In this document: in pieces, positions 13,134-46,434 of the stretch
Position numbering within the stretch: position 1 is the stretch's first letter
How the letters are laid out: each line of letters starts with the position of its first letter
Source of the DNA: a virus
Taxonomy: Duplodnaviria; Caudoviricetes
Direction: 5' to 3' (one strand)
DNA: 53,560 nucleotides
IMG/VR virus record: IMGVR_UViG_3300006754_000025
Span: 1 to 53,560 of that record
The notes under the pieces: generated by a model
What the model was told of the DNA's origin: nothing
Database searches by the model: none
The model's input: only the letters and a program-made list of their open reading frames with translations
Made by a program: the position numbers and the translations under genes

Positions 13134-15910
13134 TACGTCGCCCGTGTAACAGAGGTCGGATCATCGGCGTCGTTCAAGGTGAACGTCGCGGCGGTTGTCG
13201 TTCCGTCTAACTGCCTCAGCGTCTTGGTGGTAAGCGTCAGGTCAAACTCGCCAACATGCGCGTTGATGATGTAGAGCAACTGGGCGCCCGTCATCGCCGA
13301 CCCATCCGTGCCGTACGCTTCGGTGAGCGCCGTCGTCCAGATGTCAGCGGCTGACAAGTCATTGAGCGCCGCGATCGCAGTCGCGTTCGAGTCAACCACC
13401 GTGTCGATCGTCGACAGCTGCGTGTCCAGGTTCGCCGACGCCAGCCCGACCGCCGTGCGAATATTCGCCTGCGACAGATCGTTGAGCGCCGCCACTGCTG
13501 ACTGAGTCGTCGAGTGCTGCGTGTCCTGGGCGGTATCCAACGCGTCCAGCGTCGTAATCGTTCCGCTGATCGTGAAACCAGCCTTGTCTGTAAGAGCCCT
13601 GGTTGCCACGCTCCACACGTCAGCGGCTGCATGGGTACTGAATCCAGTTGCGGTCACCCAGGTCGTCACACCGTCGCCAACAGCCTTGCCGAACGTGCCG
13701 GCGGACGTGTGGCCCGCGTACGCTTCATCCCAAACCGCGTCGGCCACAGCTGCCGCCGTTGGTGCGGTCGCGTTGTCCAATGCCTCGGCGGTGCTGCCGG
13801 ACGTTCCTGAATGGTCCGCGATTGCCTCTTCCCAGACCTGATCCGCAACAGCTGCAGCAGTCGGTGGGGTTGTTGTGTTCCAATCGCCTTTGCCGTCGAG
13901 TGAACTAGCGCCAAAGTCACCCGCTGCGAGAGTGAAACCAAGAGCCGACAGGGTACGCGTACCGCTCGTCCAGACATCGGCAGCTGAATGGGTGCTAAAT
14001 CCAGTCGCGGTCACCCAGGTCGTTACACTATCACCGACTGCTTTACCGTAGGTCCCCGCAGTAGTGTGGCCGCTCGTCGCTTCGTCCCACACCGCGTCTG
14101 TAATAGCCGCAGCCGTTGGGGGCGTCGTGGTATTCCAGTCCCCCTTGCCATCCAGAGCGCTCGCCGCGATCCCGGCTGCCGTCAACCAGTTCGACGTGAT
14201 CGAAGGTAGGTTCGTCAAGTTGGTGGTTGTGGCGACCGTCGTCACGTTGACGACCGTGTCCGATGCAGGGTCAAAGTCATTCATGTTGCCGATGAGGTAG
14301 CCAGCTGATCCAGCCCCGTACGCACCGGGAAGCGCCGTCGACCAAGGGTCGCCAGCCGCGCCAGCCGCGTTCAAAGCCTCCGCTGTCGATCCAGATGACC
14401 CAGAGTGGTCGGCCAGCGTCTCAAGCCAGACTTGATCCGCGATCGCACCAACCGTGGGCGGGGTCGTGGTATTCCAGTCCCCCTTGCCATCCAGAGCGCT
14501 CGCCGCAATACCAGCCGCCGTCAACCAGTTGGATGTAATCGCCGGCAGGTTCGTCAGGTCAGTGGTCGTCGCGACCAAGGTCACGTTGGCCACAGTGTCC
14601 GCAGCTGGGTCGAAGTACGAAGCAGCGGCGAGCGTGCGTGCGTTGAATTCAGCGACCGTCGGAATGTCCGCAATGCCCGCCGTGTGGTCAGCCGTCTGGG
14701 GCGTGTTGCCTGTGTAGGTGGTCAGCGTGTTGACTAGATTCACGGTTCCCACGACGCCAGAGGACGACATTGTAATCGCCGACGCATCGCTGGTGATATT
14801 CGTAGCGGCGCTCAATGTTCGCGTACCGCTCGTCCAAACGTCAGCTGCGCTATGCGTGCTGAATCCCGCCGCCGTCACCCACGTTGTGACCCCATCCCCA
14901 ACCGCTTTACCGTAGGTTCCCGGCGTCGTGTGGCCGCTCGTCGCTTCGTCCCACACCGCGTCGGTGATCGCCGCCGCCGTTGGGGGCGTCGTCGTATTCC
15001 AATCGCCCTTACCATCCAAAGCCGACGCGGCAATGCCAGCCGCCGTCAACCAGTTCGACGTGATCGAAGGTAGGTTCGTCAGGTCGGTGGTCGTTGCGAC
15101 CAAAGTGACATTGGCCACAGTGTCCGCCGCCGGGTCGAAATACGAAGCAGCGGCAAGCGTGCGTGCCGATATGACCGCGTCCAAATTGGTGCCGAGAATA
15201 AAACCCGCCGTGCCACCACCATACGCGCCCGGCAAAGCTGTTGACCACGGATCGCCGGCAGAAGAGGCTGCAGCCAATGCTTCTGCCGTGCTACCCGATG
15301 TGCCGCTATGATCGGCAATTGCTTCTTCCCAGACCTGATCGGCAATTGCAGCTGCAGTCGGATCGTTAAGTGCAGTGAAACTTGAACCGTCTTCAGTCGC
15401 AGCCATCGCAGAGTCTGTGCCCCGCTGGTCGCTATTGGTCGTCGTCGTGTTAACTAGATTGGTCGTCGTCGCCGACAAGTTGACCGATGTCGACTGATTC
15501 TCAACATTCGCCCAGTCGATGCCTATGTTTCCAGTCGCCGTTAGATTCAAAGCCGCTGACAGGAAATTGTCAGGGATCGAAACCATTTCAGGGGCTGCCC
15601 CAGCATTCACCACGTCAAGCATTTGCGAGCCGATGCAGGCGTCCCCCTCAGCTGGTGAGCCGCCAGCGCGATCGTAGGCGGTAACGTGATACAAACCGTC
15701 TACGATCCAGCTAGGCAGTTGCGCCGTGTAGTATCCGCTCGCTGTCCCCTGCTCCGTGCCTGCGACATCGTAGTCCGCGATCGCAGCCGTCGAGTAGGTT
15801 TCAAACGCAAGGTCGGTCGCCACGTCAGCAATGTTGCCGTCGCGATCGCGGATGAAGAAATAGACGTTGTTGCCAGTCGTGTATTGGATACCCAGGACAT
15901 CGTTAGCCAT
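13133..15910 (-). CDS. long repeat-built fibre-like virion protein
   Basis: 925 aa, Ala/Thr/Gly-rich, with repeated AxxVW(D/E)ExxxxH.. modules. Confidence 0.75.
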   Translation of the reverse strand: MANDVLGIQYTTGNNVYFFIRDRDGNIADVATDLAFETYSTAAIADYDVAGTEQGTASGYYTAQLPSWIVDGLYHVTAYDRAGGSPAEGDACIGSQMLDVVNAGAAPEMVSIPDNFLSAALNLTATGNIGIDWANVENQSTSVNLSATTTNLVNTTTTNSDQRGTDSAMAATEDGSSFTALNDPTAAAIADQVWEEAIADHSGTSGSTAEALAAASSAGDPWSTALPGAYGGGTAGFILGTNLDAVISARTLAAASYFDPAADTVANVTLVATTTDLTNLPSITSNWLTAAGIAASALDGKGDWNTTTPPTAAAITDAVWDEATSGHTTPGTYGKAVGDGVTTWVTAAGFSTHSAADVWTSGTRTLSAATNITSDASAITMSSSGVVGTVNLVNTLTTYTGNTPQTADHTAGIADIPTVAEFNARTLAAASYFDPAADTVANVTLVATTTDLTNLPAITSNWLTAAGIAASALDGKGDWNTTTPPTVGAIADQVWLETLADHSGSSGSTAEALNAAGAAGDPWSTALPGAYGAGSAGYLIGNMNDFDPASDTVVNVTTVATTTNLTNLPSITSNWLTAAGIAASALDGKGDWNTTTPPTAAAITDAVWDEATSGHTTAGTYGKAVGDSVTTWVTATGFSTHSAADVWTSGTRTLSALGFTLAAGDFGASSLDGKGDWNTTTPPTAAAVADQVWEEAIADHSGTSGSTAEALDNATAPTAAAVADAVWDEAYAGHTSAGTFGKAVGDGVTTWVTATGFSTHAAADVWSVATRALTDKAGFTISGTITTLDALDTAQDTQHSTTQSAVAALNDLSQANIRTAVGLASANLDTQLSTIDTVVDSNATAIAALNDLSAADIWTTALTEAYGTDGSAMTGAQLLYIINAHVGEFDLTLTTKTLRQLDGTTTAATFTLNDADDPTSVTRAT

Positions 15911-18900
15911 TACCGGCCCTCGCGTTCACGTTGTTCCCGCAGCAATTTGTTTCGCTTTTGCATCGCTGAGATGAGGCGTTGCATTCGTTCAGCCTCTGCC
16001 CGCTCCTCTTTCGGCATCGCCTCTTTCTCGTCCGCTGAGAAAAACGCCCGCTTGAATGTGCCGGCGCCCATCCCCTTGAGCCTGTCGAACGCCGCCTCTC
16101 GCGTCGCCCGTGTCTGCGCGGCGGGTGAAATGTCAGTGACACGGAAGCCAGTGAGTTGATTCAGCGCGTTGTAGAAGATGTCGGTGGGCGACCCTAGTTT
16201 GCGAGGATCTGTCGCGCTACGCAGCCGAGTAACACCACGGCTCGTCGGAAGGTTCGACATGAGCAGTTCAAACGTCTGATTCGTCTTGACTGGCCCCTTG
16301 CCCTCTTCTCGCAAGCCAGTGAGTTCGCCAAGGTTAGACATCAGGCGACCAATAGGCGGATCAGCTGACGCCAACTCGCGAGGCCCCATCGGGCCTCGCT
16401 GGAAGAAACTTTGGCCGGTCGCCATTTCTAGCGGCGCTTTAATCATCGGGTTCATTCGCGACATGCCTTCGAGGAGCGTGTTACGAACGTCCGGCCCGAA
16501 CCCCAACGTGTCCTCGATCGCCAGGCCGCCACCTGTCAGGTATCGCGGCGACCCGTCAGACGCTGTGCCGATGTTGGCGGTGAACTGGTCTTTCAAGTAG
16601 TTCGGCAACGGGGCTTCCTGCTGTCGCTGTGCTTCCATGCCAGCGTAGTTGTAGCCTCGCACCGTCTGCCCCATCGCGCCGCCCGGCTTCTCCAACAACC
16701 GCTTCCAAATCACCGGAGCGATGCGACGAGAGAAGGTGTAGAAGGGCACGAGCCGCCGCATTCCCTGCTTCTCAAACGGCGTCAACCGGCTGTAATCGAA
16801 GTGCAATTCCTCAACTTTGTGCGCCGCCGCGATCGGGTCCCAGCCCTGCTTTTTCAGGTAGAGGTAAAGCGGTACGCGGTTGAACCACTCAACCTGTTGG
16901 TTCAGCTTGCCGCCCGTGTACGCGCCGGTCCTCGCAGCTGTTCGGATTTTCTCTAACCCGCGTCGGAGCCGTTCGAGTTTACCCCACGGCTTCTTGCCGC
17001 CGCTCGCATCCGCACCGAACAATGGATTGTTCGCGACCCATTGCGACTGCTCTTGCCACGTCGTCCTAACGTCTCTCGCACGTTCCGGCACGACGCCCTT
17101 GCTCGTTCGCAAGTTGAAGATGTCCGTATCGATCCCGTGTCCCAATACCTCGTACGCCTCTAACTCACGCAACAAGTCCCGATCGTCGGTCGTCAACGAC
17201 TTGATGTCCTTCCGCGCCTTATTCAGTAGCTCCTTTGCGAATTTGGCGAATTTGGCGTAATCGCCAACGTCTCGTGGAGTCTCCATCAACCCCGACGCCA
17301 TGTTGACATGCTGGCCGGATACCAAGTTGCGAAGCTGGAACGACGGCGTACCGAACCCAACGGTGACGCCTGCCTTCCAGTAACGCATGACCTTATCGAT
17401 ACCCTCGCCAATCACGCCGAACCATTCAGGGTCGGAGTTCAGTTTCTGCAGCGAGACGAACGCGTCCGCAAGATCAGGCTGAACTCGCATCTTTGCAAGC
17501 TCATCGACGTTGGTTTGGGTCTTCTCAGCCAAGTGAACCAATGCCTTGAGCGGCCCATCTGCACCCTCTTTCGCGGTCATGCCCGTTGACCTGAATACCG
17601 ACGCGATGTCCGGCGCTTCCGCAAACCCCTCGTCCCCAGCGTTTATGTAGGATGCAGGGTCGGCCAGCGTCTCATGGAATGCTTCTAGGTTGCCCCTCGC
17701 TCGCGCAAGTTGCTTCTGGTATCGCATGAAGTCGTCCGTGAGGTTCTTCGTGAACATCTCATGCGACTTCCGGCCTTTCAGCCACTCGTCAATCGCCCAG
17801 GCGTGCGCCTCGACGCCTTCATACACTTTGCCGTCGTGCGTGAACGCGTCTTTGTCCCACCATTTATTCGGCTTAATGTCGTCCCCCATGCCCTTGCCGT
17901 GGAATTCCGCATCGAGGTAGCGACCGTACTTTTTGAGGATGTAGTCGTAGCCCTCTTCGCGTACCTGTGGATCGGTCAGCAAGAGGTTGACGATGCCGGC
18001 AGGCAGTGTGCGAATCGCTGGCTGCCGGGCTCGGGCCGCATCAATTTGGACGCTCCATTCTCGCGTCTTGCCTAAGCCCAGTTTGTCGGCCAGCTTCTTA
18101 TCGACTGACCGGGGCGCATATTGATACGAAACGGCGTCGATCATGCTCACGTCGCCGCCCATTTCCTCGTACGGCTCCAACGCCTTCAGCATGCCACGAT
18201 GTAACTTGCCGGCCAACTCGTACGTTTGATCCCGCAACGCAAGGTTGGCAATCTCGTCGCCGCTCAGCATCGAGTCAAAGACCTTGCGAAGCTCAGGGCT
18301 CATCAGCTGGTCAATATTCTTGCCGTCCGCCCCCAGGTACTTTGACCGAATCCCCTGATAGAGCGTCTTCAACCACTGCTTAAGCGACTTGAATACCCGC
18401 TCCAACTTTCGCGTCGGCGACTTCCCCGACCGCATGTACAGTTCAAACGATTCCGCGAAGACCTCTTCCGCCTCTTCGGTCCACCGACCATCCGCATCAA
18501 CTACCTGTGTCGCCTTGTTGAGACGCCCCGCCCTGGCGAGTTGATCCAAGACGCCGCTTTCGGCGTCCCTAAGCAACTGTGGGTCAATGTCCGCAAGATG
18601 CCGCCGGAAGATGTGCGATGTCTCGTGAATAAAGGACGTGAGGTCGCCGCTGCTGTCGCCCGTCTTCGCGTTGCGGAACGCGGCAAAGATCGATTCCTTT
18701 TGCGCATTGAATGCGACGGCGGCCTTCGCCGTATTGCCCCTACCCTGGTGAAAAATGTCTTGGATTGTGACATCCGCATCGTCGAAAATCACGAAGTTGT
18801 TTTTACCCTTCGCGGCTTGTTTTGCCTTTTCCAATTGGTCGACGTATCGTAACTCCATTCGTGATAAACGCTTCAGTCGCGGTGCGGTGTCCGGTTGATC

Positions 18901-21900
18901 TGCGATCTTCTTGCGGAGTTCAGCGATGCGATTCTGAATCCAGGTCACCTGTGACCTCGCGTTCATCACGGACGCGCGCGACGAACCGTCGAAGTATTTG
19001 ATTCCGCGAATACCCGCCTTGCGCAATTCGTCCGACGCGGCTACCTTGCCGCCAACGCTCTTTGAGAGGTCGTGGTAAACATCTTTCGCGGGCTTATTCC
19101 AATTCGATTCCAGGTATCGCTTTTGTGCTTCCCAAAACTCAGGACTCCCTTTCGCTGCGATAAACTCGTCGGTGATACCTGAGCCGTCAGGGCCAATCCT
19201 CTCGCGGAACGCCTTCTTCACTACGTCGGATTGCTCAGACAGTGGTAAGTCCCACTTCAAATAATCATCGTCCGCCGGCGCAAGGTCAACTTTATAGAGA
19301 CGACCTGTCCCCTTATCGAGCGAGACATCTCCTTCCTTCAAGTCTGACATGAACCGATATACGTCCTCCTGGTCCGACAATGTCTCTTTCGCTCGCTTCC
19401 AGTCCGCCTCGTCCCACGAAAGATTACCCCACCGCTCGGGATTAACCGGCTTTCCTAGCCGACCCTCTCGCTTCAGCCCGTCGATATGCCGGAACTTGTC
19501 GTCAGCGCGGCGCAAGTCAAGCTCAATCGACTCCATTTGTTTCGCTAACGCGTCGTCGAACGACTGCCCGCCTTCCAGTAACCACGACAGCTGTGTAACA
19601 TGGTCACGTTTCGATCCCCCTAGTACGCGAGTGGCAAGTTCACCTTTGTATTTGACTACTGGACGCGAACTCAACGTGTCCTTGTAATACCGGGCGATGT
19701 CCTCAGTTTCCGTGAAGTACAAACCATGCCCATACGCCGCCGCGCCCTCGCCTGTCCCAATCTTCGACGAGTCAAACTTGTCAAACTCGTGCGGTGACCC
19801 GTGCCATGCGGTTTGATAAAGGATGTCCTCGTGATTGCTGCCATCGACGGACATCATGTTCCCGTATCTTTGAGAATCTGCACGTCCACCAACACTCCCG
19901 GTGGCATCCTCGGACTCGGCGAATAACTTGTACTCGCCATCTGTGGATTTCGTCACCGATGAAGCATCCGGCCAATTGTTCTTGGCACGACTTAAGGCGT
20001 GGCCCGAATTAAGACCCTTGACTTGATCGTAACTGAATGTTCCATCTGGCCATTCCACACGCACGGACTGCACGAACGGGAACCGTTGTTCTTCAAATCC
20101 ACGCAGCTGATAAAGGATGTCACCTGGAATTGCATCGCGCACCGGAACAACCGTCGAGCCTTGTTCTTTGACCATTCCGGTGCGGCCAACAATCAACTCG
20201 TCCTCTGGAACCTGGAACCTGCGAGATTCCCATCCCTCGTCGAAGCTATCCACGACCCACGCGTGGCCACGTTTCGCCCTCTTGGTGCCGGCGTGTTTCA
20301 TCGGCTTACTGAATTGGTAGCCCTCTTTGCCTTTAACTTTGCGCTGGACGGTAGCGTTCCGCTGTACGGGAATATTTGGCTGCTCGTGAAAGAAGTCAGT
20401 GCCGTATTTGAAATCCTGGCCGGCGTAGCCTGACTTCTCTGCCAGCTGCTTAATTAGCGGATGTAACGATTTCCGCTCGTCTCGCGACAACTTGATCGCG
20501 CCCGACTTGATACTGTCCGTTGCCTTGAACGCCCCTTCCTGATCTGTTAGTTGCCGCAAACGCGAATCGCTAACGTCCCACCCCTTACGCAGCAGATCCT
20601 TGAACGAGTCCTGTCGGAACAGGGACGTAGCGTCCCAGGCACCCGCCACGCCATCGTGCTGCAACGCGTCTAGGAGTCGATTGAAGTTGTTGGCTTTGAG
20701 TCCCTTAAGTCTTTCGCGATGCACAGACAACGCGATAATGCCGCCCCACACTTGCTCCTGAATCTGGGCGGGGGCGATGCCCATCTTTTTAGCCACTTCA
20801 CGGAAAACGGCTGCCGACGATGCGTAAAGCCAATTCTTACCAAACTCGCCACCGAGCTTGTAAGCGGCCTTGCCGTCACGTGCGAGCAGCTTTTTCCCGC
20901 CGAACATCAGCATTGACGCTTCCAACCAGTTGGCGGCCCGAGCCATCCATGTGTCTAGCGGAAGCGGATCGTCCTTGCCCTCTGTCGCCCGCTGAAAGTT
21001 GGGTTGCTTCATCCACTCCTCGCTGCCAGCCCTTAATTCACCCGCGTCAGGAGTATTTGAATTCACGACGCGTTTGATGTTCTTGACGTGTGTGCCAGTG
21101 GCTTTGATGACAGGCTCCCCCTTGACTTCGGATATTCCAATCACGCGAGCCCGAACCGCATTCTTGGTTTCGATGAGTAGCTTATCGATCACTGCATCGT
21201 CAGTTGTGTAGTCGCTGGCTTTCCATCTCACGAGGAAATCAAGCGCCAACTGGTCGTGCTTCTCGACGACGGTCTGTGCCGAAAACGCCGAGCGGAGCGC
21301 CGCGAATCGCCTAGCGTCTGCTGTGCCCAACAGGTTCTTGTAGATGGCGGCACCACGCTTGTATTCACCACCGACAGACTCACCAATTTGAGCCAGCGCC
21401 TTGATCGACGTTCGATCCCAAGTGTTGCTGTAGAACATTTCCATCGACTTGAGCGCCGTTGGGTTCTTGTTTGCTATCGCATCCAGTTCCGCGTCACTGT
21501 AATGCGACAACATCTTGAGGTACTTGTTCGCCACCTCTGGTCCCTGCTTCTTCTCCACGTTCAAAGCCGCTCGTTGTGCTTCTTCTGGGATTCGCCTGTA
21601 CGTCGATTTGGCGGCTCGCGTCGCTTTGGGTCCAAGTGTCTCGTTAAACCGCTGGAACAGGGTCTTGCTTCCGCCGATCGCAGAGTCGTTGTCACGCAGC
21701 GCCTTCATGTCGCCGGCTTCTAGCGTGTCCCATGTTACGTCTTCGTAGAACTTACCGGTCGAGTGGTCGAACAGGTCAAACGTCTGCTTTTCGATTTCGT
21801 AACCGGCTCGGCCCTCCAGTTCATCATTGCCAGCTTCATAGATGTCGTCGGCAATCTGTTTCAGTTTCGCTGAATTAAGCCGGAATGTTTCAAGGTTATT

Positions 21901-35248: not shown

Positions 35249-35689
35249 TTAATTTCCTCTCTCTTCACGAGAGATGCAGATAATAGCCATCGTCGTCGCG
35301 ATGTGGTTCTTACGCCACTTGTCTGGTATGACGACGTGACCAAACCGAACGTGTACGGTGTGAACGCTCGTGACGCCGGACAGCCGCTGATGGATAAATT
35401 CACGTCGAATCTTTTGTCGCCAGGTCGCGATGCGGCCAACGTGGTCCGACTCGCTCCCGCTAGTTCCGCGAACGATCGTCACCATGATTGGGTAGGCGAT
35501 GTCGTCGCAGGTGTTCGTGCCTTCTAACTCCCATTCCTTTTCCGGCAGGTGGACTGTTACGCCCGAGTGGATCTTGTGTTGATCCCAAGGCGCAATCCGC
35601 TTGTTCACGCCGTTGTCGCCAAGCCCGTCTAGGCTCAACGCATCAATTTGCGTGACAATCTGATCCATGCTGTCTTCAAGGACGCTCAT
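35249..35689 (-). CDS. tail terminator-like protein
   Basis: 146 aa with alpha-beta-beta-alpha-beta layout, between the adaptor and the tube. Confidence 0.55.
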   Translation of the reverse strand: MSVLEDSMDQIVTQIDALSLDGLGDNGVNKRIAPWDQHKIHSGVTVHLPEKEWELEGTNTCDDIAYPIMVTIVRGTSGSESDHVGRIATWRQKIRREFIHQRLSGVTSVHTVHVRFGHVVIPDKWRKNHIATTMAIICISREERGN

Positions 35690-36864
35690 TAAGTGGGACT
35701 CGCGTTAACAACTTCGTCCGGTACTGTTGACCAACCGCGCCAATGGAACGGGTGTTGAACAGACCCAGACGACGAGTTTCGGTTTCGTGAGTCGCCGCCG
35801 GCTGCCTCTTGCAGCGCCAACATCGCCAGCTGCACGTACTCCGCGCGATCCTCTCGCTTCGTCAGTAACGCGAACTGGGCTTCGCACGCGCGAAGGAAAT
35901 ACGTGTGCATCGTGTCTGTCGTAAAGTCGAGCGGGTCGCTAATCGAATACTTCACGCCAGACGCGCCGATACCTGGCACAGCGTCGATGGTGAGGCTGGT
36001 CGTTGACGCAACCTCATCGACGATTCGGTAAGCGGTGTACGGGTTGTCGCCCTCGCGATCGGTAGGAACCGTGGACGAATCCGACGAAAAGCGAATCACC
36101 GCGCCTTCGTGGTTGGCGGCGCTAAACGCGGTTCCCGTGCCAGTGACGGTCGTCGAAGCCGCGCCATGATCGATCGTGCCGGTGGACTCACTGAATACCC
36201 GCAGCGGTCGCGGGCCGGCTTGGTAGTTGAATTCGTACGTGCGTGCCGTCGATGGCGGCGGGCTTAGCGTCATCGTCAACGCGCCGTAGTAGTCCGAGTC
36301 GCCAGCGTTGATCGTGAAGATGGTCGGCGTGCTGGGCGTCTGATACCAAATCGAGTGGCCTAGCGCTTCGGGCGGGTCGCGATAGTCGATCGCGTAGTTG
36401 CCGATGACATCCCACGCCTTATCGATCTTGCGGAAGTTCGACGGGAATGGATAGGAAGCCCGGTAGCAGATGTAGGAAGTTCCAGCAACTACATCTGCAC
36501 CGGGATTCAACTGTTCGGAAAGCGTCACGGTCGTTGACGAACCGTAAGACTCGATCGGGTAATGCGCCTGATCGCTGGCGAAGTAGATTCGGTACAGATC
36601 CGCGTTCGTCGGAAACGTGTCGCCCGTCAACGTGACGGTTCGCGTGGAATGCGTGTAGGCGACGCTTCCGTCTGACACCGACGCTTCACTGCGGATCGAA
36701 TAGCGTCGCTCGTAGTACCGCCACTTATAGACGTTCGGCAAAGCTCGATACGCAGCAAGGATCGCTCGGCGCACATTGCGACCTTCCCGCCCCGTCGTGT
36801 CAACATCGAAGACATCAACGACGTGGTCGTAAGCATCCTTATACGTGTAAAGCTCAATCGACAT
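35689..36864 (-). CDS. head-tail adaptor (podovirus-type) with two inserted beta domains
   Basis: RRAILAAYRAL...W...Y.FP.NF...P..F....LSPPP....Y...Y..P adaptor pattern; inserts TVTLTGDTF and TVTGTGTAF. Confidence 0.6.
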   Translation of the reverse strand: MSIELYTYKDAYDHVVDVFDVDTTGREGRNVRRAILAAYRALPNVYKWRYYERRYSIRSEASVSDGSVAYTHSTRTVTLTGDTFPTNADLYRIYFASDQAHYPIESYGSSTTVTLSEQLNPGADVVAGTSYICYRASYPFPSNFRKIDKAWDVIGNYAIDYRDPPEALGHSIWYQTPSTPTIFTINAGDSDYYGALTMTLSPPPSTARTYEFNYQAGPRPLRVFSESTGTIDHGAASTTVTGTGTAFSAANHEGAVIRFSSDSSTVPTDREGDNPYTAYRIVDEVASTTSLTIDAVPGIGASGVKYSISDPLDFTTDTMHTYFLRACEAQFALLTKREDRAEYVQLAMLALQEAAGGDSRNRNSSSGSVQHPFHWRGWSTVPDEVVNASPT

Positions 36865-37429
36865 GGTTTCCACCGTGTTTTTCGATGATGTCCGCCGTCT
36901 CGGTCTTGACGTTCAATTCAGGATTGGCCGCCTGCCGTTCGCGCAGGTGACGAGCGACAATATCCTTCCCTAACGTCACGCGTCTTTTGCGGGCTCGCTC
37001 CGGTCGCGCCGGGGCTTCCGCATCCGTGACCTTGCACGAGCCCTCGCACGGTACGCCTCGTTCGATGCACCGCTCTTGGACTTCGCCTCGCGATTTCACA
37101 AACGCTTGTGGGTCGCCTTCGTCGTCGGCCAGGCCAGGTTGATAGAAGTCGCCCGGCATCGGCGTGTAGCCTTTGGCTTTCGCCTTGGCAACGATTCGTG
37201 CAAGCCCTGCTGGATCGTCGGCGAACTGCTTATCCAACGTGCCAACGCCCGCGAAGAATGTTGAGTCGGTGACACAGCCCGGCGCTTTCCCTGCCTTGGC
37301 CATTTCGCGCATTCGCTGCTTGTCCCTCGCGATCTGTTCGTCAGGCAGAGGCGGGTCGTACACCGTTTTGCCGGCGACGATGGTTGCGCGATAAGACACA
37401 CCGTTGATTTTCGTAGTCCAACCAGCCAC
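36854..37429 (-). CDS. hypothetical protein in the head module
   Basis: GGAG RBS before GTG 37429; 191 aa. Confidence 0.6.
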   Translation of the reverse strand: MAGWTTKINGVSYRATIVAGKTVYDPPLPDEQIARDKQRMREMAKAGKAPGCVTDSTFFAGVGTLDKQFADDPAGLARIVAKAKAKGYTPMPGDFYQPGLADDEGDPQAFVKSRGEVQERCIERGVPCEGSCKVTDAEAPARPERARKRRVTLGKDIVARHLRERQAANPELNVKTETADIIEKHGGNHVD

Positions 37430-37433
37430 GTAA

Positions 37434-37760
37434 TTACTCCTTGATGTAGCGGAACCAGCCTGTGACGCGACCGGTCGTGGTAAGCACGACTTGGAACGCT
37501 TCCCCGGCGACGCATTGAACAACCGGAATCAATTGATTGGCCGGTTTGTCGATCGCCCCGCCTGCGATCAAGCCGACAGGACCGATCTTCACCGTCGCCG
37601 CACTCGTTAGCGAAACGTCGTTCGCGGCGACCGCACGGAGATGGGCTTCGTAGACTGTGATGCGTTGCCCCGCCGTCAACGCAACAACCTCATGCGTCGC
37701 CGCCGTTGCTTCATCGAACTGGACGGTCACCAGTTTCTTAGGGTCAGTTAGAATCGTCAT
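37434..37760 (-). CDS. small beta-rich virion protein
   Basis: 108 aa downstream of the portal gene. Confidence 0.6.
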   Translation of the reverse strand: MTILTDPKKLVTVQFDEATAATHEVVALTAGQRITVYEAHLRAVAANDVSLTSAATVKIGPVGLIAGGAIDKPANQLIPVVQCVAGEAFQVVLTTTGRVTGWFRYIKE

Positions 37761-40176
37761 TGTTTCCCTCCGACGCTGGCTTCTTATCGATCAGCGTCAG
37801 TTGTTTTTGCTTCAGCTTGATGTCCTGCTTTTTCAACTCGATGTCGAGTTCTTTCAGGTCCACTTCCAACTTCTTTTCTTCCACGTCGTACTGAGCGATT
37901 GCCACGTCAGCCGCTGACTGCATCGCAGCCGACTGAGCATTGACGCCAGCTTCCTCAGTCTTGATGCGAGTCTCTTCCACCTTCGCCATCGCGTCGGCTT
38001 GCTTCAGCGCGGCGTCTTGCTGCTTGGTTTGGGCGTCGGCTTGCTTGACGGCAAGTTCCAGCTGGGCGGACTGGGCCGCCGTTTGTGCTTGGACCTGCGC
38101 TTTCTGCATCTCGATTTGCGCTTTCTGTTGGTCAACGGCTGCCTGCGCCTGCGCCGCCTGTATGTCGACTTGCGACTTCTGGATCGCCAGTTGCCCCTTC
38201 TGCAACTCGGCCTGCGCCTTCGCTTGCTCGGCTTCCGCCTGCTGCTGCATCATTTGCTGCTGCTCTGGCGTCGGCGGCGGCGGCGGTGCCGGCGTACGAG
38301 GACCCATCCGAAGCTCGTCAACGTCCATCTCGATCGCATCGCCCCATTGCTCGACAAACGCGTTGAGCGGGTTCGTGTCCGACGTAGCGTCGGCGTGCTT
38401 GTCCAGCACCGGGAAGAGGGTCGAAACGACCGCGTTGATATTCTCGGTGTCTCGCTCTTTATTAGGCTTGCGCATCGAACCGGCGGTGACTGTAGCGCGC
38501 ATTTCCCGCACGACGACTTCCGGTTCTACGCCAACGACCTTCTCGTCCCAGAGACGAGCGCCCACCGGGCCAACGAGGTCTTGGATGTCTTTTCCCTCGA
38601 CAAACCACCGCGCGACGAACTTCTCCATGTCCGCCGCTAGTTCCATCCACGCTTCGACACGCCTAGCCATATAGTCTGGCCGGACTTGGCTGTTCTTGTT
38701 CTTGATTTTGCTGTCGGTCGCCGAACGACTCTGCGCGCCGCCAGGATTCAAGCCGTACACCAACTCGTTCAAGCCGGTACGTTGCTCAAACAGATGTGTG
38801 ATTCGGTCGATCATTTGGAACGCGTCGGTATTCACGTTCGGCTGGTCGATCCATTGAATGCACTGCTTCAGGTCTTTATTGACTTCGCTGATCTTGATGA
38901 TCGCCAAGTCTTCCGCCGATCGTAGCGGTCCCTCGACTTCCGCAGCCGCCCGCTCCAAGACCGCGATGATGTCACGGCTGCTCGACCACGTTCGCCCAGC
39001 AAGATGGCTGATGAAGATATTGAGGTAAGTCAACTCGCCCAAGCCGGGCGCCATCGGTGCGATTGGGTACGGCGATTTGGGGTTCGGGTAGAAGTCCAAC
39101 ATCGCAAACGGCCATTTGTCATCGCGCCAAAACGGGATCGGCCAACGAAACCGCTTCTCGATCTGATCGTCCGATTCCCTCTCAATCGCGTCGCTTGGCG
39201 CGTTGAGCGGCCAGTCGCAGCCCTCGCAAACAACGACGTAGCAATAGTCGCCGCAAACCTCGTCCAACGTCTCTCGCAAGGACGTGTCAACGCCGGTCAG
39301 TCGTCCGCCGCAACCCATCTTCGACCAGATACGGTAGAAGACGATTAGGTCGTTCGTCACGCCCTGCTTGCGATGAAACGACGCCAGGTCGTCGCCCCTC
39401 TGCTCACCTCGACCGTTGTGGCTTTCGGCAGTCGCTTTGTCCTTCAGCGAATCCTTCGGCAGATTGAATTCGCGTTCGACCTTCCAGTACGGCAAGACCT
39501 CTCGTTTCGCCACCCACCAAGCGTCGTCGAGCGAGGTGCAATCGGGGTCATAAAACAGATTCTCTTGCGAGTCGAAAAAACATCCGGTCAGCGTTCGCTG
39601 CGAACCCGGCATCTTATACTGGCGCGGCCAGACGACCCCTCGCCCTGACACCAACGCCTCGGTGATTGCTGAATGAGAGTTTTCGGCGAGGCCGCCGAAC
39701 GGCTGCTCGTCCGGCGTGTAGTTCAGATAGAGTTCCATCAACTGGGTGCGGATGTCGTCATCCATGTCGCGCTTCAACTGCTCTTGCACAACCTGCTGAA
39801 ACATCGGCGACTCTTCCCCGCCGAACATCTGAGGGTCAGGCTCGAACTGTTTACGCGGGCGGACGGCACGAGCCGGATTCTGGTGGTACATCGTGGGTCC
39901 AAAGATGGACACCAACTCGAATCCCTTTTGCAGCGTGATCTTAAAACGCGGCTTCATCTTGCCGTTGAGGTACTTCGCTTGGAACTTGTCGTCCCACATG
40001 AAGCCCATTTCGCCGCTGAAAAAATGGTGGCACTGGTTCGCAATCGAGTCCCACGGTTTGCGCACAGCTATCGCCTGCTGGATCTTGCCGAGCCAGCCAC
40101 TAACGAGCGGTCGCATTACTTCCGTCTTCTTCGTCGGATCGGGCGACACGCGTGAGGATTCGAGGGCGCTAATCAT
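37744..40176 (-). CDS. portal protein with long C-terminal coiled-coil barrel (P22-like)
   Basis: 810 aa after TerL; EALVSGRGVV, FEQRTGLNELVYG, SATDS motifs; poly-Pro followed by a ~160-aa Q/A-rich helix. Confidence 0.85.
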   Translation of the reverse strand: MISALESSRVSPDPTKKTEVMRPLVSGWLGKIQQAIAVRKPWDSIANQCHHFFSGEMGFMWDDKFQAKYLNGKMKPRFKITLQKGFELVSIFGPTMYHQNPARAVRPRKQFEPDPQMFGGEESPMFQQVVQEQLKRDMDDDIRTQLMELYLNYTPDEQPFGGLAENSHSAITEALVSGRGVVWPRQYKMPGSQRTLTGCFFDSQENLFYDPDCTSLDDAWWVAKREVLPYWKVEREFNLPKDSLKDKATAESHNGRGEQRGDDLASFHRKQGVTNDLIVFYRIWSKMGCGGRLTGVDTSLRETLDEVCGDYCYVVVCEGCDWPLNAPSDAIERESDDQIEKRFRWPIPFWRDDKWPFAMLDFYPNPKSPYPIAPMAPGLGELTYLNIFISHLAGRTWSSSRDIIAVLERAAAEVEGPLRSAEDLAIIKISEVNKDLKQCIQWIDQPNVNTDAFQMIDRITHLFEQRTGLNELVYGLNPGGAQSRSATDSKIKNKNSQVRPDYMARRVEAWMELAADMEKFVARWFVEGKDIQDLVGPVGARLWDEKVVGVEPEVVVREMRATVTAGSMRKPNKERDTENINAVVSTLFPVLDKHADATSDTNPLNAFVEQWGDAIEMDVDELRMGPRTPAPPPPPTPEQQQMMQQQAEAEQAKAQAELQKGQLAIQKSQVDIQAAQAQAAVDQQKAQIEMQKAQVQAQTAAQSAQLELAVKQADAQTKQQDAALKQADAMAKVEETRIKTEEAGVNAQSAAMQSAADVAIAQYDVEEKKLEVDLKELDIELKKQDIKLKQKQLTLIDKKPASEGNNDDSN

Positions 40177-40679
40177 TCAGTCGATCCTGCGGTTACGCGT
40201 TGGGTCGTTCGGCTCTTAATCACGCTACTAACCGTCATGGCGTTCCACTTGCCGCCGACTTCTTTCGCAATCTCTTTATTGGACTTGCCGGCTGCGTTCA
40301 GTCGCATAATCTGCACACGCTCTTGCTCGCCCGTCTCCGCTTCAGCGACGTGGGCCTGCGCTTGACGCGATTTCGCGATACGTTCCGCGTCCTTGAGTTG
40401 CTGGCGCTGAATCGATTCACTGAGCGTTTCCCAGAGTCCGTACTGGGCGGCGACTGGGTCTTGGACATCCGTTAGCACATGGTTGACGTTGCGTCGCAGA
40501 ACGAACTGCATCGCGTGCTTGGGAAGCGTCGCCAAGTGGCAGCGATTGAGATAATCGATGTCGGTGACGACCGCTGCGATCGGCGTCGCTCGCGTGTCGC
40601 CCTTCTCGTAAAACACGACCTGACAACCGATGACCGTTGTCTCGCCACTGTCGAAGCCTTCTCGCTGTTTGCTACTCAT
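40173..40679 (-). CDS. hypothetical protein with C-terminal HTH
   Basis: ATGA-coupled to terL; RLNAAGKSNKEIAKEVG...TVSSVI HTH. Confidence 0.6.
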   Translation of the reverse strand: MSSKQREGFDSGETTVIGCQVVFYEKGDTRATPIAAVVTDIDYLNRCHLATLPKHAMQFVLRRNVNHVLTDVQDPVAAQYGLWETLSESIQRQQLKDAERIAKSRQAQAHVAEAETGEQERVQIMRLNAAGKSNKEIAKEVGGKWNAMTVSSVIKSRTTQRVTAGSTE

Positions 40680-42427
40680 CGTTGGGAAACCTCGTTTGTT
40701 GTTGCGCCGGGTCCACACGTCACTGACATGCGATCCTGCTTCGGCGCTGGGGACCACTGACTACGGAAATACTCAAGCGCCGGACTGGCCGGCATAGCGT
40801 TGATTGGCGGCGGCGCGTACTGGAAGTCGCCAGCACACCAGTAGCGGATGCAGTCACAAAGAGGATCGATCTGCCGGCCTGCCGGCTTCTCGCCTGTGAC
40901 GCCGGACGAGGGATGTTCCTCTTTGCGGTACATCGCCATCTGTTTGATAAACGCCGGGCAGTTGCCGGTAACCAGGCGCAGCTTGGGGCGACCGTTCCGG
41001 CGGATGTATAGTGCTTCGCGGACGGCTTCGATTCCGCCCATCAAGTCATCGCTACCCATGCGGAATGTGCCGCCAGTCGAGACGCATCGCAGACTTAGAA
41101 GATTGAACGCGTCTTCGTAATGCTCGCGAACCGTTTTACTGAAGCCCATCGGCGTCGTTCGGCCAGCGTGCGAGTCCATCACGAAGTAATGGAACGACTG
41201 ACTCTTCGCCTTGTGCAAAACGTGCTTCGCCAGCGTGTGGGCGTCGCAGCTGGGGATATAGACTTCGTCGTAAATGACGTGAACATCGCCACCGCATACC
41301 TCGGCAACGTCAGGCGGGGCGATCGCGGTCAGCAGGACGCCAGGGTGCGAGTGACCAGGGTCGAGGATCAAACCGCGACACCAATTCGTCGGCGGCATCC
41401 CGCCGTTCTTCGCGAGGATCTTATCTGCCGCGTCGTAGTCGCCTTCGCTGGCCGGCGGCGTACGGTGAACGAATTCGCTGAAGTTCGGGTAGACACGAGA
41501 CGCGCCGAAGACGAACTCGCCGTCATCACGCGACTTGATTTCCTCTGCGCTCCAGCCCTCTCGCCGCTTCCGTTTCTCGTCTTCCTTGATGAACGGGTTG
41601 TCGCTGAATCGCAAGACGACTTCTTCAACGTCCGGCTTCTTCCGGTCCTGTTGATCTTTCGCCCGTTTGCTCAAATCGACGACGACGTGCGAGCCGTGGC
41701 CAGGCCAAACCGACCAGACGATGCGTCCCTCATGGTCAGAGATACGCGCTTGCCACTCCGCGTAGTGACCAGGAAATTTGATTTTCTCATCGATCCAGAT
41801 GTAGTCGACCGGGTCGCCCATCTTCGGGTCAGCCACCGACGTGAACGCGTAGATGGTCGTGCCGTTCGTTAACTCGCATTTGGTGAACAGGCGGTTGGCT
41901 TTGTCTTTCCAACCCCAGCCTTTGGGGTTAATCAGCCTTTTGGGAATCGCCGGCGGCGAGGGGCGGCGATCGGCTTGACGGTCCTGATCCGTTTCAGGGT
42001 CATACGCTCGCCACTTGTCCGTCTCAAGGTCTTTGACCATGTCGAACAAGCCGCGTTGAAACAGCAATCGATGCAGCGTCTGGCCGATGTGCTTTTCGCC
42101 AAGCCCGATCGTCCACATCGTCATCGGGCGGTTCTGCTCGTGCGCAAAAGCGTGCGGCCCATAGATCGGAAGACTATTGCCGTCACTGTCATAGATCGGA
42201 ATCCCAGTACACGCCGACGCGAACAACATCGCAGCGCACACCGACTTGCCCGATCGGTTGCCGCCTCGCAACAGCAATTCCGACGCGCCCGAATAGAAGA
42301 CCTTCAGTTGGTTGGGCTTGGGACGAAATATATTCAACGCCTCTTTCTCCAACCGCGATCGATGCGCGGCGAGTTTTAAGAGTCGCTGTTGATTGCTAGG
42401 CGTAATGCTACGCTGCGTCTTCGTCAT
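40676..42427 (-). CDS. terL: terminase large subunit
   Basis: Walker A GGNRSGKS, Walker B YIWIDE, nuclease motifs ILDPG and DPLCDCIRY. Confidence 0.92.
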   Translation of the reverse strand: MTKTQRSITPSNQQRLLKLAAHRSRLEKEALNIFRPKPNQLKVFYSGASELLLRGGNRSGKSVCAAMLFASACTGIPIYDSDGNSLPIYGPHAFAHEQNRPMTMWTIGLGEKHIGQTLHRLLFQRGLFDMVKDLETDKWRAYDPETDQDRQADRRPSPPAIPKRLINPKGWGWKDKANRLFTKCELTNGTTIYAFTSVADPKMGDPVDYIWIDEKIKFPGHYAEWQARISDHEGRIVWSVWPGHGSHVVVDLSKRAKDQQDRKKPDVEEVVLRFSDNPFIKEDEKRKRREGWSAEEIKSRDDGEFVFGASRVYPNFSEFVHRTPPASEGDYDAADKILAKNGGMPPTNWCRGLILDPGHSHPGVLLTAIAPPDVAEVCGGDVHVIYDEVYIPSCDAHTLAKHVLHKAKSQSFHYFVMDSHAGRTTPMGFSKTVREHYEDAFNLLSLRCVSTGGTFRMGSDDLMGGIEAVREALYIRRNGRPKLRLVTGNCPAFIKQMAMYRKEEHPSSGVTGEKPAGRQIDPLCDCIRYWCAGDFQYAPPPINAMPASPALEYFRSQWSPAPKQDRMSVTCGPGATTNEVSQR

Positions 42428-42935: not shown

Positions 42936-42944
42936 CGCCTTACC

Positions 42945-44063: not shown

Positions 44064-44077
44064 ATCGCTCCTTCGGC

Positions 44078-45175
44078 TTAGGCCAAGTCTTTGATCAGCG
44101 CGAAGTATTTCGGCTGATACCGTGCGTTGCCGAAGAAGCCGGCTTTGAAGAGGTACGCATCCGACTTGATGTCGTAGTACGGTCCTCGTGTGCCGAACAA
44201 AACGTCATCCCAGGACGCGAGTTCCATCTGATGGACGTTGATCGCGTAGACTTCCGTCGCCGGCACGTCAAATTCGTACTTGACCATCACGCCGTCTTGA
44301 TTGAGCGTGTCGGGGAAGCCGAGGTCGCGGGCTTCGGGGTGAGGGATAATGTTCCGAAACTTCGCTTCGTGATAGTCTTGGAAGCCGTTGAACTTGTTGT
44401 TGCCCATCATGTAACAAGTTGGCCGACCATCTTTGCCGCCGTTCTTCGTGAGCCAGGTCGTGGTTCGACGAAGGATCTTGCCGCAATTGTCTTCCCAGTT
44501 GGTCGTCGCACCCCAAGCGGTGGACGAACTGTTGACGATGATCGGCGACAGGTAGTCGTAATCACTGTCGCCTTTGCCGTCCGGCCAGTCGGTGTTGATC
44601 GTCGAGTTGGGCTTCGTGCCAAGGTCGGTCGACCATTGGCCCGACTCCGACGCGAGCGCCGTCGATCGAGTGCCATACGTGTCGCTAGGAACAGCGACAA
44701 TATCGCCAGCGGCGACGGTTCCGTAGCCAAGGAACGACTGCAGACCGTGAAGCCGGTTGCCGTTTCCAGTGGCGTAGCCGTCGATGTAAAGCTCACCGTG
44801 GAAGTGGTCGTCCAACGACTTCTTCAGGTTGGGCATAATCCGCTTGTAGCGATTGATGATCGCCACGTTGCCCTTGTTCATCAGCGTGTTCTTAAAGTCC
44901 ATCTTGTCCGTGGCGACATAGCCGCGAACATCGACGTTAAGCTGCCGATAGAGGTCGTGTTCGTCGAACGAATACTCGCCACTGGCGCCATGCGATTGCA
45001 CGGGCGGTTGCGAAAATTCGACGTTCCAATAACAGGACTCCCCGTTTTCGTTGAACGAAATTCGTCCAGCTTCGGACAGCAGTCGTAGGAAGAGTCGCCG
45101 CCGTACCGTCAGGTCGGCAGCGCCTGCGAAATACTTTCGCGCAGTCGTGTTAACGACCGTGAGGGCTTCAGCCAT
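44078..45175 (-). CDS. major capsid protein (HK97 fold)
   Basis: 365 aa after the scaffold; LYIDGYATG...LHGL and LGFPDTLNQDGV..KYEFDVP...Y.IN motifs. Confidence 0.85.
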   Translation of the reverse strand: MAEALTVVNTTARKYFAGAADLTVRRRLFLRLLSEAGRISFNENGESCYWNVEFSQPPVQSHGASGEYSFDEHDLYRQLNVDVRGYVATDKMDFKNTLMNKGNVAIINRYKRIMPNLKKSLDDHFHGELYIDGYATGNGNRLHGLQSFLGYGTVAAGDIVAVPSDTYGTRSTALASESGQWSTDLGTKPNSTINTDWPDGKGDSDYDYLSPIIVNSSSTAWGATTNWEDNCGKILRRTTTWLTKNGGKDGRPTCYMMGNNKFNGFQDYHEAKFRNIIPHPEARDLGFPDTLNQDGVMVKYEFDVPATEVYAINVHQMELASWDDVLFGTRGPYYDIKSDAYLFKAGFFGNARYQPKYFALIKDLA

Positions 45176-45189
45176 CTCTTAGACTCCGT

Positions 45190-46434
45190 TTAGATGATGC
45201 CTTGTTTCTTCGATTCCTCGTCAACCATTTCCGCGAAGTCCATGTCCTCCGCTGCACGCTCAGCAGCAGCTGCGACACGCCGATTAGTTGGCGGCGTATC
45301 TGGCTGGCCGTTGATGCGGTTCTTCTCTTTCGCGAAGCCCTCTTTCAATCGCTCATTGCGATGTTTCGGAAGCTCCGGCGAAGTTGGCGCGGTTGGTTGA
45401 GGGGTTTCCTCGCCGCTCGTTGCTGTTTCAGATGGCGATGGAGCGGCGGGGCGCCAATGCTCCATCGCGTAGTCGTTGAGCGCGTTGTCGTCGGCTTCAA
45501 TGTTGTATTTCTCGAAGAAGGCGCGTCCCTGTTCACGGACGGCTAAGAATTGCTGGCCTTCTTCGGACACCTTTGCTGCGCCATCGCCCTGCAGCTGGTA
45601 ACCGCCGTCCGCATCCAAGGCGAACAGCTGCTCACGGTAATGGTGCAAAAAGCCGTTGTACTGCTGGTCGGATTCGCTGAGTTGCTGTTGCTGTCCGAAG
45701 TAGTCTTTGATTTGCGATTGGACTCGCTCATCGAAGTCACCTACTTGTTGTTCAACCAGGCGTTGCGTGGCTTGCTCGACCAGGGTTGGGAATTCGCGAA
45801 CCAGCTTGCGGGCGTGGTCGGCTTCCCAGCGTCGTGCCGTCGTAATCTTGTCGGCGATGGATTGGTCAACCCAGTCCCTCGCGGCGACGAAACGACCCGC
45901 TTCGGCGTCGTACTCGATGTCGCCTCTCGCGACGAGGGCTTCCCACTCGTCGCTAACTTCCGGCGGCGTCCAGTCCGCGAACGGTCCAGGCGTCTCTTCC
46001 TCTGGTTCTGGCTCTGGCTCAGGCGGGGCTTGGCGTTGCTCTTGCCACTCTTGGTAGGCCGGATCGCGAAGCCGTTCAGCGGCGTCCATTCCATCGAGTG
46101 CTTGCCGTTCAAGCTGGGCGACGAAGTCGGCGTCTGTCTCGTAGCCTTCTAGGTCGATCCCCCGTGATCGGTACGCGTCGAGGATTGGCGTGCTAACTGT
46201 CTCAGTTGGCTCGACCGCTGTCTCAGGCTCAGGCTCGGACGGCGTCGTGGGCGCAATCGACTCGGGTGACGGTAGCAAAGCGCTTGAGGGGTCGGCGGTT
46301 TTGTCGTCGCCGCCCTGCAGCTTGGCAGCAGCTTCAGTGAAGACATCAAGCGGAGTTCCACCATTGACGGGGGCGCCCAGCGTCTCTGGGGCACCTTCGT
46401 TCATGTCATCTGTGAAGTCGTGTTGCTTTGCCAT
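45190..46434 (-). CDS. capsid scaffolding protein
   Basis: Acidic, helical/disordered 414 aa immediately upstream of the MCP gene. Confidence 0.7.
   Translation of the reverse strand: MAKQHDFTDDMNEGAPETLGAPVNGGTPLDVFTEAAAKLQGGDDKTADPSSALLPSPESIAPTTPSEPEPETAVEPTETVSTPILDAYRSRGIDLEGYETDADFVAQLERQALDGMDAAERLRDPAYQEWQEQRQAPPEPEPEPEEETPGPFADWTPPEVSDEWEALVARGDIEYDAEAGRFVAARDWVDQSIADKITTARRWEADHARKLVREFPTLVEQATQRLVEQQVGDFDERVQSQIKDYFGQQQQLSESDQQYNGFLHHYREQLFALDADGGYQLQGDGAAKVSEEGQQFLAVREQGRAFFEKYNIEADDNALNDYAMEHWRPAAPSPSETATSGEETPQPTAPTSPELPKHRNERLKEGFAKEKNRINGQPDTPPTNRRVAAAAERAAEDMDFAEMVDEESKKQGII

Follow-up and report, generated by a model that had tools for sequence, protein, structure and literature searches.

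The stretch of DNA analysed here (the window) is a linear virus record of 53,560 bases from IMG/VR (IMGVR_UViG_3300006754_000025; Caudoviricetes), without end repeats, and the subject of this study is the neck and tail encoded in its structural operon. The operon runs along the minus strand from 46434 to 13133 and holds 26 open reading frames (ORFs), all of which had been listed in an earlier reading made from the sequence without database searches (the sequence-only reading) and were found in place. That reading had proposed a hybrid virion plan, with podovirus-type head and ejection machinery joined to the tube module of a long-tailed phage. Besides the capsid, terminase, portal and tube, most operon proteins had no match in Pfam or PHROGs. 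No sheath family was among the Pfam and PHROGs matches of the 26 operon proteins, in agreement with the earlier claim that a sheath is missing, and a contractile tail was rejected for this reason. The neck and tail genes on which the interpretation turns are the following (lengths in amino acids, aa):

37744..40176, minus strand: portal, 810 aa, of which the last ~170 form an extension rich in Q/A/E/K (PF23899 SU10_portal; phrog_1216)
36854..37522, minus strand: conserved protein between portal and adaptor, 222-aa ORF (jackhmmer)
35689..36873, probable start 36864, minus strand: predicted T7/SU10-type head-to-tail adaptor, 394 aa (family profile, AlphaFold2 model, Foldseek)
35249..35689, minus strand: 146-aa protein in the terminator position, co-occurring with the tube
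34341..35246, minus strand: predicted tandem-domain tail tube protein, 301 aa (PF18906; phrog_290; AlphaFold2 model and Foldseek)
33996..34337, minus strand: tail assembly chaperone G, 113 aa, with the slippery heptamer A_AAA_AAC at the end of its gene
33661..33987, minus strand: T part of the GT frameshift product, 108-aa ORF in the -1 frame (frame relation read directly)
32682..33668, minus strand: protein in the tape-measure slot (the slot protein), 328 aa, acidic, proline-rich and of low complexity, with a C-terminal amphipathic helix (read from the sequence)
31924..32685, minus strand: 253-aa protein in the Dit position, conserved in tube-type loci
29088..30602, minus strand: 504-aa protein in the hub position, from a very large uncultured family

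The neck is predicted to be of podovirus type, since the adaptor agrees with podophage adaptors by both family and fold. The family PF24175 SU10_adaptor was matched by 11 of 41 aligned members of the adaptor family, with a best E-value (E) of 2.4e-7. The AlphaFold2 (AF2) model of the adaptor (predicted local distance difference test score, pLDDT, 89.1) has helices at residues 11-48 and 321-361, a beta-rich insert at 55-312 and a disordered tail at 366-394. When this model was compared with the PDB using Foldseek, the phage matches were adaptor chains of Pa223, SU10, Moo19, VP1, crAss001, GP4 and KHP30 (probability 0.84-1.00; template modelling (TM) score by target, TMt, 0.39-0.64), with probability 1.00 and TMt 0.51-0.64 for the chains of Pa223, SU10, Moo19 and VP1, and no siphophage or myophage adaptor was among the matches listed. 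Named matches in BFVD were 'Head to tail adaptor [Podoviridae sp.]', 'Tail tubular protein A' and a PhiCHU protein, together with one metagenome entry labelled 'Siphoviridae sp.'. The adaptor plan of T7 and SU10 is present in the model as a helix bundle, an inserted dock domain and a C-terminal extended loop. This does agree with the accessible part of the SU10 description, where the adaptor is given as a helix bundle, a fibre-dock domain and an embracing loop, like those of T7 and KP32 (PMC9509320). Solved podophage adaptors are 202-234 aa long, however, and the adaptor of the window is ~170 aa longer. Single-sequence PDB searches with the portal, adaptor and tube were uninformative, and a profile of the adaptor family against the PDB returned a 'Distal tail protein gp20' (E 0.0023) through a short low-complexity TGTGTAF-like motif, a match that was judged meaningless.

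The portal was matched by PF23899 SU10_portal (E 1.1e-13) and phrog_1216 (E 1.3e-12), and A/Q/E/K/L/M/R make up 68% of its final 180 residues, with P/G at 5.6%. Family and composition are as the sequence-only reading had them, and the long Q/A-rich C-terminal helix or barrel that it named is predicted from sequence. The podo-type adaptor of the same reading is borne out by the SU10_adaptor family matches, the AF2 fold and the podophage matches in Foldseek, and portal and adaptor both group with the T7/SU10 podovirus neck and not with ordinary siphovirus necks. The claim that there is no separate head-closure gene could not be upheld, as two ORFs without an assigned family, of 108 aa and 222 aa, sit between portal and adaptor. 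The 222-aa protein has no Pfam or PHROG match; its homologues are ~165-210 aa long, and jackhmmer finds the family in 44 of the 50 viral loci introduced below, with both tail types. A missing stopper is not a hybrid trait in any case, and a missing head-closure gene would not be odd, because the connector of siphophage T5 consists of portal, adaptor and terminator only, with no stopper, according to the accessible part of its description (PMC11313276).

The tube that follows this neck was assigned through family, profile and fold. PF18906 Phage_tube_2 matched the 301-aa protein at 75.3 bits, against a gathering cut-off of 27 (E 8e-21), phrog_290 matched it with E 9e-21, and PF18906 was found in all 84 homologues retrieved. 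A profile built from 33 of the homologues found P74-26 gp93 (8ed0) in the PDB with E 2.7e-10 and the 'major tail structural protein' 8xan with E 2e-6. The AF2 model (pLDDT 87.4; predicted TM score, pTM, 0.84) superposes over its full length on solved tubes, with TM scores of 0.81 for the SH-Ab15497 major tail protein, 0.80 for P74-26 and 0.74 for T5 pb6, so that both the tail tube named in the sequence-only reading and the fold expected of it stand. Single-domain tubes (lambda V, R4C), on the other hand, cover about half of the model (~150 columns; TM score by query, TMq, ~0.32-0.34; TMt 0.59-0.67). On the strength of this full-length fit to the tubes of SH-Ab15497, P74-26 and T5, and the half-fit to single-domain tubes, the protein is predicted to be a tandem-domain tube, in the class to which the ring-forming tube of T5 belongs; the latter is described as '40 trimeric rings' in the accessible part of the source (PMC11313276). 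By profile and fold, P74-26 gp93 and the SH-Ab15497 major tail protein (8xan) are the closest solved relatives; they differ in being the tubes of long-tailed phages, and the comparison with them was made on the tube protein. The tail of P74-26 is extremely long, with a tape measure of ~5000 aa. Elsewhere in the tube family, locus L062 (11658-13211), from a metagenome-assembled genome with a Myxococcales title, encodes a tube of 517 aa with a C-terminal tail of ~170 aa rich in S/T/P.

Relatives were gathered by scanning with the adaptor alignment, which gave 50 loci on viral contigs and 17 in species genomes (individual loci are given L numbers). The tube module was present in 13 of the viral and 6 of the genome loci (tube-type loci), and the remaining adaptor loci had no tube downstream of the adaptor. 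As the same adaptor family is found with and without the tube module, two tail designs appear to sit on one neck family. Phage morphotypes are usually treated as fixed packages of neck and tail, yet here one adaptor family joins either design. In ten tube-less loci that were picked, the adaptor gene is followed by that of a 729-1665-aa protein, often with an ORF of ~100 aa in between; such a large protein was seen behind the adaptor only in relatives that lack the tube. Nine of these ten large proteins have phrog_3287 'virion structural protein' in common, and a Pfam search with the ten found no nozzle family, only weak E1_FCCH matches and unrelated domains.

A quick tree was made from 56 distinct adaptors (17 tube, 26 tube-less and 13 undecided), for which the tube-less label required at least 3 kb of downstream sequence, and identical copies and adaptors shorter than 300 aa had been left out. 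On this tree, 3 changes account for the tube/no-tube label, as opposed to 13.6 when it is shuffled, and none of 500 shuffles was as low. From this clustering, the tube and tube-less designs appear to be old and rarely exchanged, and the design seen in the window would be no assembly artefact. The latter bears on the possibility of a chimeric metagenome assembly, in which a podovirus head and neck contig was joined to a siphovirus tail contig; it has in its favour that the window is an assembled IMG/VR record without end repeats. The order from capsid to hub recurs, however, on independent contigs from many samples, with adaptor identities of 25-62%, and one recurrence is on a circular record of 63.8 kb (G001, the record behind L003). 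Given synteny on so many contigs, a chimera was rejected as exceedingly improbable.

Two further observations were made on these loci. The C-terminal extension of the portal (long, charged or Q-rich) follows tail type across relatives L009-L075: 13 of 15 distinct tube-type portals are at least 700 aa long, and portals of loci without a detected tube are mostly 631-682 aa with a proline-rich end, the exceptions being L024, L030, L034, L036, L043-L045 and L073. At the tube-less locus L024 (11146-16143), a protein of 1665 aa right after the adaptor carries matches to a 2OG-Fe(II) oxygenase (E 4.8e-14) and cpYpsA SLOG (E 6.7e-19), which makes it an enzyme-bearing giant in the position of the post-adaptor tail protein.

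Behind the tube gene of the window, two short ORFs are laid out as a frameshifting pair. The slip site A_AAA_AAC lies at 34005-33999, directly before the stop codon of G, which ends in GCA AAA AAC TGA, and the T part follows in the -1 frame. An identical heptamer occurs at the same place in L003/L010 and L009, at protein identities of 42-52%, and in L059 the G-like part closes with G_GGA_AAC, so that a slippery heptamer is present at the G/T junction in all four distinct loci with separate G and T ORFs. A T-like domain forms the C-terminal half of a single ORF of 204-239 aa after the tube in L014, L021 and L070, and in L021 the N-terminal half of this ORF is visibly G-like. Neither the G nor the T ORF of the window has a Pfam or PHROG match. 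The arrangement is the G/GT expression strategy of long-tailed phages, and the chaperone pair named in the sequence-only reading is confirmed by the slip site, the -1 frame and the recurrence in relatives. G/GT chaperones are said to be a hallmark of long tails, reportedly on the work of Xu, Hendrix and Duda in 2004. The T part also has a conserved cysteine pattern, CxxC ... C ... CPKG (window, L009, L010, L021 and L059), with a zinc-ribbon-like look, an uncommon feature among tail chaperones.

The gene after the chaperones occupies the tape-measure slot, between T and the 253-aa gene, a position that is kept in the relatives. Its 328-aa product is rich in D/E/P, only ~50 C-terminal residues look helical by eye, and it has no Pfam or PHROG match. 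The slot proteins of relatives have the same make-up and are 142-304 aa long in all nine that were read, with one of 606 aa in L060. With 328 aa here and 142-606 aa in relatives, the slot protein is not a long, mostly alpha-helical tape measure. Nor was a long helical tape measure found in the circular relative G001 (63,828 bases, with a 22-base end overlap), of which the longest ORF is 1269 aa. If the length of the tube scales with the slot protein, the shortness of the latter would mean a short tail, and a short tube is plausible.

The proteins in the terminator, Dit and hub positions are less easily named, and were compared with those of siphophage T5 (Demerecviridae), which has portal pb7, adaptor p144, terminator p142, tube pb6, tape measure pb2, Dit pb9 and hub pb3. 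Among the tube-type loci, 12 of the 13 viral and all 6 genome ones encode the 146-aa protein, and no locus without a tube does. Pfam searches with 15 members gave no terminator (two rows, E 0.044 and 0.092, to unrelated families), its profile found nothing relevant in the PDB, and hhalign against T5 p142 gave E 0.095 with a probability of 0.6%. The 253-aa protein recurs in 11 of the 13 viral and in all 6 genome loci of tube type. The protein itself had no Pfam match, none of 32 family members matched PHROGs, the hhalign comparison with T5 pb9 was negative, and the best PDB profile match was a weak one to SPP1 gp16 (E 0.06). An Atlas model of the protein (pLDDT 0.50) gave TM scores of 0.37-0.48 to Sipho_tail clusters and 0.32-0.54 to tail terminator and completion clusters. 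Comparing the 253-aa and 146-aa families with the tube family by hhalign gave nothing.

With 2204 representatives at E <= 0.001 in the 50% library, the family of the 504-aa protein is a very large one, and the 504-aa and 253-aa proteins are both conserved in tube-type loci wherever the contig is long enough. None of 35 members of the 504-aa family matched Pfam, no PDB profile match was found, and hhalign against T5 pb3 was negative. The sequence-only reading had called the 146-aa, 253-aa and 504-aa proteins terminator-like, Dit-like and hub-like. Position stands for each of the three, along with co-occurrence with the tube for the first and weak Sipho_tail leads for the second; the similarity that the names would imply was found neither in Pfam, the PDB and p142 (146 aa), nor in PHROGs and pb9 (253 aa), nor in Pfam, the PDB and pb3 (504 aa). 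Since the three proteins match no terminator, Dit or hub family, these labels are used here for position and co-occurrence.

Towards the end of the operon, two large proteins and a fibre-like protein follow a small one:

25988..26389, minus strand: conserved small protein, 133 aa, upstream of the two large proteins, with homologues in L009, L010 and L015
23898..25976, minus strand: 692-aa low-complexity protein rich in Pro/Gln/Arg, candidate internal or ejected protein (from its sequence)
15910..23877, minus strand: 2655-aa multi-domain protein with conserved end modules and apparently variable central enzyme cassettes
13133..15910, minus strand: fibre-like protein with internal repeats, 925 aa, the final gene of the operon (from its sequence)

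The 2655-aa protein has conserved N-terminal (residues ~33-469) and C-terminal (~1904-2613) modules. Its homologue in G001 has 1269 aa and matches residues 33-469 and 1904-2613 only, and the central part therefore appears to be a variable insert. Within this central part it was matched by phrog_9880 (E 1.8e-16) and, below the cut-off, by ART-PolyVal (7e-4). Polyvalent proteins of phages and conjugative elements, reportedly described by Iyer and colleagues in 2017, are alike in being very large with several unrelated enzyme-like domains, but the link to them consists of the sub-threshold ART-PolyVal match only, and the end modules of the 2655-aa protein match no described family. The N-terminal domain was also found in the tube-less loci L027, L028, L034, L038, L065 and L073, mostly cut by the locus ends. 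The 692-aa protein, without a Pfam or PHROG match, shares a core motif with an ORF of ~825 codons that crosses the ends of the circular G001, and the C-terminal 124 aa of the fibre-like protein match an ORF of L015 (E 3e-24).

The gene order in T7 is gp14-gp15-gp16-gp17, and the order of 133-aa, 692-aa, 2655-aa and fibre genes in the window resembles it, in that a fibre gene closes the operon behind the genes of the large proteins. This order supports, short of proof, an internal and ejected role for the large proteins. Should they be ejected, the 2655-aa protein would be a natural delivery vehicle with exchangeable cargo.

The reading favoured here, at a probability of about 0.6, is that the operon encodes a non-contractile mosaic virion assembled from two modules of different ancestry, as judged from the portal, adaptor and tube families, the adaptor and tube folds, the frameshift site, and the synteny and distribution of these genes. 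It keeps from the hybrid plan of the sequence-only reading the podovirus neck on a siphovirus-type tube, and takes the tail-tip identities and the ejection roles as tentative. The head-proximal module would consist of the portal, with its long C-terminal helical extension, and the large adaptor, both of the T7/SU10 podovirus neck class, and the beta inserts of the adaptor would take the place of the T7/SU10 fibre dock, with the flexible C-terminal tail in that of the embracing loop. Instead of a nozzle, there would follow a conserved core of the 146-aa protein, the tube, the short acidic slot protein and the pair of 253-aa and 504-aa proteins, to which the phage of the window would add the G/GT chaperone pair through a programmed -1 frameshift. 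The 146-aa protein may cap the tube and dock it to the adaptor, as p142 does in T5, and the tube may polymerise as trimeric, pseudo-hexameric rings around the slot protein. Tube length would probably be short, because the slot protein has 142-606 aa in relatives and no long tape measure is present in the circular relative. The 133-aa, 692-aa and 2655-aa proteins are probably internal and would leave with the DNA, the last of them carrying exchangeable enzyme cassettes between its conserved end modules. A short tube extended by an ejectosome, as the sequence-only reading had supposed, might then suit the periplasm of a planctomycete host.

This arrangement was set against solved and described phages. 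Kuravirus SU10 and T7-type podophages (gp11/tail tubular protein A) are alike in portal and adaptor families and in the domain plan of the adaptor. They differ in what comes next, as in SU10 the adaptor is followed by a hexameric nozzle protein and a tail needle, according to the accessible part of its description (PMC9509320), whereas in the window the 146-aa protein, the tube, the chaperones and the slot protein follow. There is no gene for a hexameric nozzle after the adaptor, where the next genes are those of the 146-aa protein and the tube. The combination of a T7/SU10-class adaptor, a tandem-domain tube and a short non-helical slot protein is unlike every solved phage retrieved, and no described phage with this pairing of neck and tube was found in the literature search, as far as result listings and the opening parts of abstracts go. 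Mixing of head and tail modules is well known in tailed phages, and the pairing is an unusual, not an unprecedented, case of it. Stenotrophomonas phage A1432, a PF18906-bearing phage called 'short-tailed' in the accessible part of its description (PMC11236537), was considered as a precedent and not relied on, because the term goes back to a single micrograph measurement there and its close relatives are long-tailed.

Several observations weigh against a mosaic virion of this kind. At the neck, the adaptor of the window has no Pfam match of its own at E <= 0.01, and the SU10_portal match spans only residues 429-657 of the portal. Further down, the model of the tube also fits the single-ring T5 tip protein 7qg9_G (298 aa) with a TM score of 0.72, and 9 of 16 distinct tube-type loci have no G/T genes, another gene following directly after the tube, so that chaperones are not a fixed part of the design. 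It is from gene position that the siphovirus-type tail tip is read. As for the large proteins, which the sequence-only reading had termed ejection-type, gene order and domain make-up are in keeping with the term, but the 133-aa, 692-aa and 2655-aa proteins match no known ejection protein (T7 gp14-16, P22 gp7/16/20) in Pfam or PHROGs. Lastly, L062 has, between its slot gene and its 253-like gene, a 359-aa ORF homologous to the N-terminal domain of the 2655-aa protein, which would tie this domain to the interior of the tube rather than to the head.

The L062 arrangement, in which the genes from tube to tip include one for a domain of the large protein, is also what an ordinary long-tailed siphovirus could produce, one with a minimal connector like that of T5, an adaptor bearing extra neck-fibre domains, and a large downstream protein (692 or 2655 aa here, 1269 aa in the relative) that sets tail length as a displaced tape measure and has enzymes embedded in it. 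Tape measures are known to carry embedded enzyme domains, long-tailed phages are the source of all the nearest solved tubes, and the G/GT chaperones would fit such a phage as a long-tail hallmark. T5 resembles the window in its tandem-domain tube fold (TM 0.74 to pb6), in the order of adaptor, small protein, tube, small chaperone-like ORFs, slot gene and tip genes, and, in the accessible account of its connector, in having no stopper. It differs in that its adaptor has 170 aa without a large insert, as far as that account goes, its tape measure gene has 3660 bp (~1219 aa) as against a slot protein of 328 aa here, p142, pb9 and pb3 have no detectable similarity to the 146-aa, 253-aa and 504-aa families, and the annotated T5 tail region, as viewed, holds no product above ~1400 aa. 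Moreover, the sequence of the 2655-aa protein looks like globular domains in a row and not like a long coiled coil, the length of the large protein differs twofold between relatives (2655 against 1269 aa), its N-terminal domain is retained in tube-less relatives, and the position of the tape measure holds a short acidic protein in every relative examined. A long-tailed siphovirus with a displaced tape measure is for these reasons considered unlikely.

The fit of the tube model to 7qg9_G, nearly equal to that for pb6, raises another possibility, namely a short tail like that of a podovirus, with only one or a few rings of the tube-fold protein below the adaptor in place of a true polymerised tube, acting as a nozzle or gate like the single ring in the T5 tip. 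The nine tube-type relatives without chaperone genes, slot proteins as short as 142 aa, and the podovirus-like neck and late gene order would all suit such a tail. The best matches by E-value and TM score, however, are polymerising tube proteins, and the Pfam family is a tube family; in addition, the frameshifted chaperone pair and the slot protein, whose C-terminal helix is conserved, are an apparatus for tube polymerisation. A tail of few rings is accordingly regarded as quite improbable, and the mosaic of a podovirus neck and a polymerising siphovirus-type tube is preferred to it.

Carried further, the mosaic reading could give the widespread uncultured clade to which the phage belongs a non-contractile tail of a third kind: trimeric tandem-domain rings would form a short tube set directly on a T7-type adaptor, with a disordered acidic 'ruler' in place of a helical tape measure, and with podovirus-style ejected proteins, among them a giant carrier with swappable enzyme cassettes, completing the channel through the envelope. 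This fuller version is doubtful. If it were true, the design would be intermediate between those of podoviruses and siphoviruses. One adaptor family joined to either tail design offers a natural test of two questions: how a dodecameric adaptor of podovirus type can dock a tube that is pseudo-hexameric, and what sets the length of a tail that lacks a conventional tape measure. No member of this large clade has been cultured or solved, and its tail-tip proteins are blind spots of current annotation. When 50,697 phage records were searched by tblastn, the tube, the portal and the 504-aa protein had no match and the terminase large subunit reached only 23-27% identity.

The remaining genes of the operon with an assignment or a recurring family are these:

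44078..45175, minus strand: major capsid protein, 365 aa (phrog_9953 major head protein, E 5.2e-6)
40676..42427, minus strand: terminase large subunit, 583 aa (PF03237 Terminase_6N, E 7.3e-6; phrog_2, E 1.4e-9)
30604..31920, minus strand: tail protein rich in G/T/S, 438 aa (from its sequence)
26445..29175, minus strand: three tandem paralogues of 320, 314 and 292 aa with a common N-terminal domain

The major capsid protein has 82% identity in L001-L003, and the nearest isolate by the terminase large subunit is Pseudomonas phage tf, at 23% identity. The 438-aa protein, for which no Pfam or PHROG match was found, is present in 7 loci and missing from L021 and L022. The first ~110-135 residues of all three paralogues match a single 229-aa ORF of L001-L003, and the paralogues differ downstream.

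With regard to the host, 12 of the 17 genome loci sharing the adaptor bear Planctomycetota titles, one of the twelve being on a contig of 2.7 Mb, and a planctomycete host for the phage of the window is plausible on these grounds. A 377-aa ORF at 47096-48229, a putative serine recombinase, adjoins the structural operon, and the related locus L064 lies on a Planctomycetales contig of 2.7 Mb; this putative recombinase and L064 suggest a temperate lifestyle. CheckV rates the window as 67% complete. It rates G001 as 56% complete, despite the 22-base overlap of its ends and an ORF running across them, and completeness estimates for this lineage, that of the window included, are for this reason probably too low.

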